A stretch of DNA of 64,000 bases from Candidatus Hadarchaeum sp. (GTDB lineage Archaea > Hadarchaeota > Hadarchaeia > Hadarchaeales > Hadarchaeaceae). The stretch covers positions 64,001 to 128,000 of the forward strand of contig NZ_JAVZIN010000002.1 of NCBI RefSeq assembly GCF_038871235.1, in the 5' to 3' direction. Each line of letters begins with the position of its first letter. Position 1 is the first letter of the stretch. The notes beneath the pieces are model-generated. The model worked only from the letters and a program-made list of their open reading frames with translations, did no database searches and was not told the origin of the DNA. Below are positions 49,229-51,027 of this stretch, one piece after another. The position numbers were made by a program, and so were the translations under genes.

Positions 49229-49552
49229 TCACCCTAACTTCTGAACGACCACAAAGGCCTTCGTCTTACTTAGTCTTCTGCACTCCATTATCTTTACCCT
49301 GTCCCCCAACTTCGCTGAGATGCAAGGTGGATTGTGGGCATGATATTTTGAGGTCCTCCTTTCATATCTTTCATACTTAGCTATTCTATGCATGCGTTCA
49401 AGCTCAACCGTAACCGTCCGGGTCATCTTATCGCTGACGACGATTCCCTCCAGTGCCTTTCCTCTGACCGAAAGTTTGCCATGAAAAGGACACTTAGGGT
49501 CAGAACACTTCTCCTTGGGTGGTTCAATTCCCATTCCAACCATCAGTATCAC
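49229..49552 (-). CDS. rps17: 30S ribosomal protein S17 (uS17)
   Basis: [17 protein letters not shown] and ECRRLSKTK motifs. Confidence 0.97.
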
Positions 49553-49821
49553 CTCTTCCGCCTAACTCTTTCCTCGGGCCGCCCGACCAGCCTCCTACCT
49601 TCTATTACCACAGTCTGACCATCAGGCAGTTTTATCTCGAATGATGAGCCAGATTTTGGCACTATTTTCGCGGCTGACATGTGTTCAATCACCAGCATAT
49701 CCCGTGTTTCATCCAGAATCTTGCCGTAGACGCCCAAAAGATTAGGATCAGAACTGCTCACGACCTGCGCCTCGAGCCCAATAAGCTCGTGCTGCAATAT
49801 GTTTCTTTTAGTCAACGGCAT
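49549..49821 (-). CDS. rnp1: Ribonuclease P protein component 1 (Rpp29/Pop4); start reassigned to 49821
   Basis: HELIGL, G.ILDETR.ML and LVGRPEER motifs. Confidence 0.94.
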
Positions 49822-49829
49822 AACGCCAC

Positions 49830-50138
49830 CTATCTCATGTTTATCATCTCGGGGGTGAACCCAAGACTCACGAGCACTTCCTTTACTCGCTGTTCGTGGT
49901 GCCCCTGTAGCTCTATGCGCCCATCCTTCCAAGTTCCACCGCAGGCAAGCTCGGATTTCAGTTTCTTAGTCAGGTCTTTGATGCTGACTTGTTTGTCATC
50001 GAGACCTTCTATGACCGTGACGACCTTGCCGAACTTTCGCTTGATGACATATACGTTTATCCGTTGCTGCTCTCGAGCTATCTCTTCGCAGACGCAGAGT
50101 TCCTTGGGCAGACCACAAACTTTACATATCTCTTGCAG
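49830..50138 (-). CDS. Translation initiation factor aIF1 (SUI1/YciH) with apparent CUG start, not in the ORF track
   Basis: Hand translation (L/M)QEICKVCGLPKELCVCEEIAREQQ...KRKFGKVVTVIEG...LKSELACGGT...IELQGHH; 102 aa; usual position between rpl29 and rnp1. Confidence 0.92.
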   Translation of the reverse strand: MQEICKVCGLPKELCVCEEIAREQQRINVYVIKRKFGKVVTVIEGLDDKQVSIKDLTKKLKSELACGGTWKDGRIELQGHHEQRVKEVLVSLGFTPEMINMR

Positions 50139-50141
50139 TGC

Positions 50142-50351
50142 TCATCCACCTCCTCGCTGTTTTTCCCTTATAATAGTGAGTATTCTGGCTATCGCCCGCT
50201 TGAGTTCCCGGATTTTCGCCGGATTTTCCAGCGAGCCGCCCGCAGCCGCTGTAGCCCTAGCTCTGGCCAGCTCTGATCTCAGCTCCTTCAATTTCTGCAC
50301 CATCTCATCAAAATTCATTGACCTTATTTCCTCAGGCCTGAGCGTCGCCAT
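50142..50351 (-). CDS. rpl29: 50S ribosomal protein L29 (uL29)
   Basis: LRPEEIR and NPAKIRELKRAIARILT motifs. Confidence 0.96.
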   Translation of the reverse strand: MATLRPEEIRSMNFDEMVQKLKELRSELARARATAAAGGSLENPAKIRELKRAIARILTIIREKQRGGG

Positions 50352-51027
50352 CGCCAACACCCTCCTCAGGGGCCTTCTTGACCTTAGTTTCCTCGACCTT
50401 TTCACCAGCTGGCTGTTTTTCGGTCCCGGTCGTTTCTTCCGCGATCTTTATCTCTCCCGGCAAGGGGACATCCGGGGGCATTATGCTCACCTTTATACCC
50501 ACGATGCCGGGCTTCAATTTTGCCACCGCTTTTCCGTGGCTGACCAGTTTCTGAGCCGGCTCTCCAGCCTTGCTCAAATATCCCTCATAAAATCGCATGC
50601 TCCTCGACCGCTCTCCGGCAATCCTGCCGGAAATCACTATCTCCACTCCTCTGGCTCCAGCTCCCATTATCGTCCTAACCATGCTCTGACCGACTCTACG
50701 AACGCTCAAGCCACGCTCCAAAGCGAAGGCGATGTGCTTGGCCATAATCGGTCCCGACAGCTCTGGCTTAGGTATTTCCACAACCTCAACCTGTGGTTTT
50801 TCGAGGCCGAACTTTTGTTCCAAATCGTCGGTCAGCTGCTTGATGCTCTTACCCTTCTTGCCGATCACCATTCCCGGCCTCTCTACATAAATAGTAACTC
50901 TGGTACCCGTGAGAACTCTTTTTATATCCACGCCGCCGTATCCGGCCTTCGAAAGCTCGTTCTGAAGATAGGTTTCTAGCTGAACTCGTTTGATTCCCTG
51001 CTTGATGAAGTGTTTTTCTACTGGCAT
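50332..51027 (-). CDS. rps3: 30S ribosomal protein S3 (uS3)
   Basis: RPGMVIGKKG KH motif, GARGVEIVISG. Confidence 0.97.
   Translation of the reverse strand: MPVEKHFIKQGIKRVQLETYLQNELSKAGYGGVDIKRVLTGTRVTIYVERPGMVIGKKGKSIKQLTDDLEQKFGLEKPQVEVVEIPKPELSGPIMAKHIAFALERGLSVRRVGQSMVRTIMGAGARGVEIVISGRIAGERSRSMRFYEGYLSKAGEPAQKLVSHGKAVAKLKPGIVGIKVSIMPPDVPLPGEIKIAEETTGTEKQPAGEKVEETKVKKAPEEGVGDGDAQA

Follow-up and report, generated by a model that had tools for sequence, protein, structure and literature searches.

The window analysed here, a stretch of 64,000 nucleotides from the genome of Candidatus Hadarchaeum sp., carries on its minus strand a cluster of genes that Pfam matches identify, in order, as S3, L29, aIF1, RNase P p29, S17 and L14. 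The gene for ribosomal protein L29 (positions 50142–50351; PF00831, 70.1 bits) consists of 69 codons and a TGA stop at 50144–50142. It is followed by the gene for the initiation factor aIF1 (SUI1; 49830–50138; PF01253, 72 bits), with 102 codons and a TAG stop at 49832–49830, and then by the gene for the RNase P protein component p29 (49549–49821; PF01868, 81.9 bits), the next in the operon. The p29 gene has an ordinary ATG start, preceded at a distance of 5 nt by an AGGTG overlapping the stop of aIF1. Further out, the L29 start lies 20 nt inside the end of S3 (50332–50351) and the GTG start of S17 overlaps the p29 stop by 4 nt (49549–49552), which is classical operon packing. An open frame of 432 codons on the plus strand (49681–50979) runs antisense to S3, L29 and aIF1. 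This frame is almost certainly spurious, is long enough to compete in gene calling based on ORF length and entered the greedy gene set made for the genome scan described below.

At the junction between L29 and aIF1 the minus strand contains, in order, the Shine–Dalgarno (SD) heptamer GGAGGTG (50147–50153), one base, the L29 TGA, the triplet GCA and a CTG (50138–50136). The heptamer occupies the last three glycine codons of L29 and is complementary to the 3′ end of the 16S rRNA of the same genome. The CTG, which is the putative initiation codon (CUG) of aIF1, is situated 3 nt after the L29 stop and in frame with it. The aIF1 frame is closed one codon upstream of the CTG and the next in-frame ATG, GTG or TTG is 87 codons downstream, so that the gene has no canonical start. 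A second potential start, an ATG at 50145–50143, is formed by the final A of the last L29 codon and the TG of the TGA stop; it overlaps the L29 stop out of frame with aIF1 and opens a mini-ORF, MSTARDM*, that ends at 50122. The original prediction, made from the letters of the window, had described these elements (an SD core GGTG, TGA at 50144–50142, CTG at 50138 and the mini-ORF to 50122) as well as the lack of a canonical start, and every one of these sequence statements is correct.

Read from the CTG, the product begins L/M-Q-E-I-C-K-V-C-G-L-P-K-E-L-C-V-C, with cysteines at residues 5, 8, 15 and 17 that make up the archaeal C-x2-C … C-x-C motif, which we take to be a zinc knuckle. The N-terminus M-x-E-[IV]-C is common to the window protein and to other archaeal and metagenome loci, in agreement with the earlier view that M-Q-E-I-C-x-x-C is the usual beginning of aIF1. 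Residues 23–94 match positions 1–76 of the 77 positions of the SUI1 profile at 72 bits, compared with a curated cut-off of 25.5, and this is the sole SUI1 match in the 1.2 Mb, 16-contig genome, making aIF1 a single-copy gene. The dN/dS values of aIF1 against its relatives are 0.01–0.12, indicating a functional gene under purifying selection. Between genera, comparison with the window gives saturated dS, which indicates repeated turnover at the silent sites. No clade-specific changes in the protein that would hint at relaxed fidelity were seen in the group consensus sequences, a result that argues neither way.

The insertion or loss of a single letter during sequencing or assembly would be a trivial source of the missing ATG. 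Positions 50136–50156 are covered by contigs from four hot-spring metagenome runs belonging to two studies (X1 and X2 of study P1, X3 and X4 of study P2), of which X1 is possibly the source of the window DNA. No letter has been gained or lost in any of these contigs, and all are free of substitutions between 50122 and 50156. The identical junction type occurs in seven species-level genomes of the genus of the window. A sequencing or assembly indel, which the original prediction had named as the first thing to check, is excluded as the cause of the missing ATG.

The comparison was extended to the order Hadarchaeales, represented by 65 species genomes. An aIF1 match is present in 64 of these, the remaining genome being 56% complete, and the L29–aIF1 junction was inspected in all 64, with that of G064 being unreadable at a contig edge. 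Among the 45 genomes of the family of the window, the Hadarchaeaceae of hot springs, 34 from ten genera have CTG at the position aligned with the initiator methionine (7/8 in g1, 3/3 in g2, 2/2 in g5, 13/13 in g8, 1/6 in g9, 4/4 in g10 and one genome each in g3, g4, g6 and g7). The other 11 have GTG (three), an in-frame ATG (five), ATA (two) or no clear start (one). In the four sister families (f2–f5), each of the 18 readable genomes has ATG at the aligned codon. Beyond the order, 65 loci from other archaea, including Woesearchaeota, Nanoarchaeota, Methanomassiliicoccales, Thermoplasmata and Thermococci, have ATG either at the aligned codon (62) or one codon later (three). A set of 80 metagenome loci gave ATG in 65, CTG in nine, GTG in two, TCG in two and an ATG one codon away in two. 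Eight of the nine metagenome CTG loci are relatives of the CTG type, and in six of these the CTG is preceded by two stops; in the ninth (L199) the following codon is ATG. The two TCG loci correspond to the ATA type (L161) and to the G024 type (L159) discussed below. Alignment of the junctions, which the original prediction had proposed as a check, gives a conserved non-AUG codon in 34 of the 45 family genomes. Because it is found in one family only and the other archaea sampled start with ATG, the CUG-start trait is, as far as these sequences indicate, confined to that family and not a general archaeal mechanism.

The 34 CTG-type loci separate the candidate start codon clearly from its surroundings. 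It is CTG in all 34, compared with 68 of the 282 other leucine codons of the same genes, and the leucine nine codons after the start is encoded by CTG in 12 genomes, TTG in 11, CTA in five, CTC in three, CTT in two and TTA in one. In none of these loci has the start CTG become TTG, a canonical start that is one step away. The triplet preceding it is variable, with ten different triplets observed. Two codons before the CTG there is a stop in 32 of the 34 loci (TGA in 24 and TAA in eight), and in the other two (G016 and G023) the upstream frame is open and contains no ATG, GTG or TTG. A start at codon 4 is not possible in 12 of the 34 genomes, where this codon is GTA or GTC.

The SD heptamer lies exactly 8 nt before the CTG in all 34 loci (GGAGGTG in 30, GGGGGTG in three and GGAGGGG in one) and matches the 3′ end of the 16S rRNA, ...GATCACCTCCT, which was located on contig C2. 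Spacings between SD and start in the window genome peak at 5–6 nt (58 and 33 sites), with eight sites at 8 nt and a single site at 1 nt; therefore the CTG falls in the usable tail of the distribution and the out-of-frame ATG does not. The 8 nt given for the CTG by the original prediction is accurate. No conserved RNA structure was detected around the start (consensus energy −1.72 kcal/mol; z = +1.92 for the window, that is, less folded than shuffled sequences), and an unstructured junction is what an initiation region looks like. The invariance of the CTG and its fixed distance from the SD, at saturated synonymous sites and with other leucine codons free to vary, together with ATG at the same position in the outgroups, argue that the CTG is the start codon and is kept by selection. 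The CUG at 50138 is thus very probably the real start of aIF1, as first proposed from the window, and this holds for the 34 genomes of ten genera.

The in-frame position of the L29 stop in 32 of the 34 CTG-type loci could also suggest that L29 and aIF1 are produced as a single fusion protein by stop read-through. The stops are, however, of two kinds, two of them occur in a row in G009 and in six metagenome contigs, G016 and G023 have L29 in a different frame, and the in-frame spacing is also found in outgroups that have an ATG. Equally, the notion that the junction is an assembly artefact or part of a dying gene is at odds with the intact contigs of four runs, the low dN/dS and the presence of no other SUI1 gene in the genome. 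Explanations of this type are considered extremely improbable.

The original prediction further supposed that ribosomes might be diverted into the mini-ORF, and this part of the proposal is not supported. The ATG of the mini-ORF is present in 20 of the 34 CTG-type loci and absent from 14, it is positioned 1 nt after the SD, and the open frames that follow it have lengths of 7, 24, 33, 45 or 72 codons and encode no conserved peptide. With an ATG in 20 of 34 loci only, frames ranging from 7 to 72 codons and a start 1 nt behind the SD, the mini-ORF looks like an incidental by-product of the end of L29. A related possibility is that translation starts at the out-of-frame ATG (50145) and reaches aIF1 by a programmed +1 frameshift, or that the mini-ORF acts as a regulator by drawing ribosomes away. 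The occurrence of the ATG in 20 loci and its use as an in-frame start in relatives with a junction 1 nt shorter (G041–G044 and G017) would be compatible with either version. Against both, neither the upstream ATG nor the ORF that it opens is conserved across the loci, the 1 nt spacing is used once among the sites counted, and the CTG is the invariant element; a frameshift or a regulatory mini-ORF is thus very improbable. Upstream ORFs with weak starts of the type described for eIF5 (PMC3326321) resemble the mini-ORF idea, and a mechanism of this kind was ruled out for aIF1 since the mini-ORF is not conserved.

The family members without CTG show several other arrangements. In G041–G044 (L118 and L122–L124) and G017 (L020) the junction is one base shorter, which places the ATG of an ATGA overlap in frame; aIF1 then begins two residues earlier, as M-S-A-Q-E or M-N-S-Q-E, from an ATG 1 nt after the SD. 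In G005 (L010), G015 (L144) and the metagenome contig L161 the overlap ATG is replaced by ATA (an ATAA overlap with a TAA stop). The open upstream frame of these three loci contains no canonical start, and ATA is a possible AUA start of aIF1. G024 (L023) and L159, which are independent assemblies, have the ATG out of frame by −1, and their sole in-frame canonical codon is a GTG inside the SD. In genus g12 (L012, L112 and L113) and in L150 a GTG occupies the aligned position, 9 nt after GGAGGTG, with an L29 stop that lies 4 nt before it in another frame. The one-base-shorter junctions (those of genus g9 apart from G022, together with those of G017 and G005) can be read as cases of a `captured' start that is again badly placed with respect to the SD.

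Across the family, then, the start of aIF1 itself is non-optimal and conserved as such, being CTG in 34 of the 45 genomes and another weak or odd start in 11, five of which have an ATG 1 nt after the SD. In prokaryotes, purifying selection on AUG starts is reported to be strong, and switches from AUG to CUG account for 2 of 61,358 (PMC5622118). Given that nearly every family member has some poor start and that such switches are rare, the weakness of the CUG start has probably been selected.

Comparison with the sister families suggests how the different states are related. Families f3 and f4 read stop-(nnn)-CTA-ATG-CCN-GAA and f5 and part of f2 have CTG-ATG, compared with stop-nnn-CTG-CCN-GAA in the family of the window (f1); the start states therefore differ by a 3 nt indel that removes or creates the ATG. 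The SD spacing is 11 nt in the ATG state and 8 nt in the CTG state. A maximum-likelihood tree of S3, L29, aIF1, p29, S17 and L14 (64 loci, 739 columns, quick search, root chosen on f2 and f5) nests the ATG families f3 and f4 inside the CTG clade, beside the GTG genus, with SH-aLRT supports of 97–100, and on this six-protein tree the start type changes at least nine times. The nesting disagrees with the GTDB family labels and an AU test does not reject monophyly of f1 (p = 0.097), so that both gain and loss of the CTG are compatible with these results. As f3 and f4 are nested in the CTG clade and the start type has changed at least nine times, the start could be evolutionarily labile rather than tightly selected.

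Such lability would also fit a tolerated accident, in which a 3 nt indel removed the ATG, coupling to L29 and a perfect SD maintained expression and the change drifted to fixation. The 3 nt relation between the CTA-ATG of f3 and f4, or the CTG-ATG of other outgroups, and the CTG of f1 is consistent with this explanation, as are the intergenic distance of +3 nt, which is within the re-initiation range given in PMC10666635, and the start-type changes in the order, which include returns to ATG or GTG. An accident is nevertheless improbable: the CTG has remained invariant where synonymous sites are saturated, it has never taken the single step to TTG, and the selection on AUG starts and the rarity of CUG switches cited above (PMC5622118) would both oppose it.

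The use of CUG appears to be particular to aIF1. In the same genome, aIF1A and aIF2-β have an ATG 4–5 nt after an SD. Genome-wide scans combining codon scores with SD matches, which are crude and blind to non-canonical starts less than about 15–25 codons before a canonical one, did not show SD with CTG to be enriched; the test set consisted of CTG codons heading start-less open frames, of which six of 217 had an SD, compared with 1.7% of all codons. The other candidates that were inspected were rejected, as they either had antisense-like translations or arose where two ordinary genes on contig C11 overlap in different frames. From their translations these two overlapping genes presumably correspond to dapA and dapB. 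CUG initiation is thus apparently not general in this organism and no second convincing gene with SD and CTG was found.

The genome-wide count of SD spacings also yielded 30 in-frame ATGs directly after GGAGGTG-like words (GGTG-ATG, spacing 0) within the first 80 codons of long open frames. These may be an artefact, with the AT of the ATG extending the SD match, or else a real class of SD-adjacent starts like the ATG at 50145. As to the tRNAs, the tRNA-Leu(CAG) is an ordinary long-arm tRNA and one intron-bearing tRNA-Met was found; a clear initiator tRNA was not found in the 95%-complete MAG with aragorn (introns allowed) and three motif patterns. Without the intron option aragorn returned only 22 tRNAs, and many tRNA genes therefore seem to bear introns.

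Textbook examples of a fidelity factor controlled by a poor start in its own message are IF3 with AUU in bacteria and eIF1 with a weak context in eukaryotes. Autoregulation of both kinds is described in PMC3326321. In archaea, aIF1 is reported to let Sulfolobus 30S complexes form on AUG and not on AUU (PMC4705826, citing its ref. 41), and a fidelity role, the proofreading of initiation complexes, is reported as confirmed in Pyrococcus abyssi (PMC6237735), so that the evidence for discrimination comes from AUU in Sulfolobus and from P. abyssi, that is, from another codon and other organisms than those considered here. Because complexes formed at non-AUG codons are destabilized by aIF1, high levels of the factor should repress initiation at its CUG start.

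A mechanism can be proposed on this basis. The perfect SD in the last codons of L29, 8 nt before the CUG, would position the small ribosomal subunit, and the CUG would presumably be read by the initiator Met-tRNA, as methionine. Ribosomes terminating at the L29 stop, 3 nt upstream, may also re-initiate at the CUG: coupling of termination to re-initiation is described for intergenic distances of −8 to +10 nt in Haloferax and Escherichia coli (PMC10666635), and the distance here is +3 nt in 32 of the 34 CTG-type loci. Pairing of the CUG with the initiator anticodon would be imperfect, making the start weak in this organism and holding aIF1 production far lower than production of the ribosomal proteins encoded in the operon. 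The CUG may perhaps be less weak than assumed here if re-initiation after L29 tolerates near-cognate codons. Synthesis of aIF1 would fall when the factor is abundant and rise when it is scarce, a negative feedback.

An alternative to this last step is that the CUG is a real start that acts as a fixed attenuator, setting a low ratio of aIF1 to ribosomal proteins without sensing the level of aIF1. The position of the gene between L29 and RNase P p29, S17 and L14 would favour such a device, since translation has to be lower for a factor required in smaller quantity, and the varied weak starts of the family are as compatible with simple down-tuning as with feedback. However, the attenuated gene encodes the very factor that rejects near-cognate starts, and its expression could hardly be wholly independent of the level of that factor (PMC4705826; PMC6237735). 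In addition, the CUG device was seen in no other gene of the genome. A fixed attenuator without sensing is for these reasons regarded as rather unlikely. The best explanation of the locus is a weak CUG start, positioned by the SD and coupled to L29, with negative feedback by aIF1, to which a probability of about 0.5 is assigned. Feedback of aIF1 on its own CUG start, taken as a separate step, is put at slightly less than an even chance. More tentatively still, the Hadarchaeaceae may have independently invented the third known thermostat of start-codon fidelity, with GUG, AUG or AUA 1 nt behind the SD representing alternative set-points of the loop.

The proposed arrangement closely resembles that of bacterial infC (IF3, AUU). 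There too, a fidelity factor is encoded by a gene with a near-cognate start that the factor itself selects against, a whole clade shares the start codon and an SD leads initiation (PMC3326321). It differs from infC in that IF3 and aIF1 are unrelated proteins, the codon is CUG rather than AUU, the trait belongs to one archaeal family and the aIF1 start follows the stop of a ribosomal protein gene at a distance of 3 nt; in addition, feedback has been shown for infC, whereas for aIF1 it is proposed by analogy. Work by Butler (1987) and Sacerdot (1996) is said to have dealt with the AUU start of infC. Similarity to eukaryotic eIF1 lies in the homologous SUI1 protein, the same rejection of poor starts and a deliberately poor start of its own (PMC3326321). 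Unlike aIF1, eIF1 keeps an AUG and relies on Kozak context and scanning, whereas the aIF1 codon is near-cognate, SD-positioned and part of a polycistronic message.

With its distance of +3 nt and an SD in the end of the upstream gene, the junction is also similar to stop/start-coupled termination–reinitiation pairs (Huber et al., 2019; PMC10666635), and relatives of the window show the classical ATGA overlap of such pairs. The classical pairs differ in overlapping by 4 or 1 nt and in using ATG, GTG or TTG, and a CUG re-initiation site is not described for them in the portion of PMC10666635 that was consulted. A 2020 review of archaeal initiation (PMC7531240) names AUG, GUG and UUG as start codons, and a term search of it found no mention of CUG or of words beginning with `autoregulat'. 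A literature search, with supplements and most subscription journals outside its range, found no description of a non-AUG start or of autoregulation of an archaeal aIF1 gene.

The CUG start of aIF1 with feedback, a plausible though analogy-based step, would be an archaeal variant of a known regulatory theme. If it is true, autoregulation of a fidelity factor through a poor start arose convergently in all three domains. An aIF1 CUG start conserved across a family at the nucleotide level provides a concrete archaeal case that can be probed in Pyrococcus or Sulfolobus in vitro systems.

The start also matters in practice: public annotations of the aIF1 gene are inconsistent (102, 99 or 93 amino acids). 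The expectation that standard gene callers would miss the gene was partly wrong. Proteins of 102 amino acids that begin M-Q-E-I-C or M-P-E-V-C, with the CTG read as M, are present in the protein collection, both for the genome of the window and for several NCBI MAGs, and the CUG start is thus already implicit in public annotation. Elsewhere the same gene is called with 99 amino acids (from GTG or ATA at codon 4) or with 93 (from TTG at codon 10), the 93-residue call dropping nine residues that include two of the four N-terminal cysteines; the inconsistency is seen between proteins P0009, P0024, P0055 and P0058 and proteins P0001, P0002, P0023 and P0070. The annotated names vary in a similar way, with `translation initiation factor' given for some of the proteins and `stress response translation initiation inhibitor YciH' for others.
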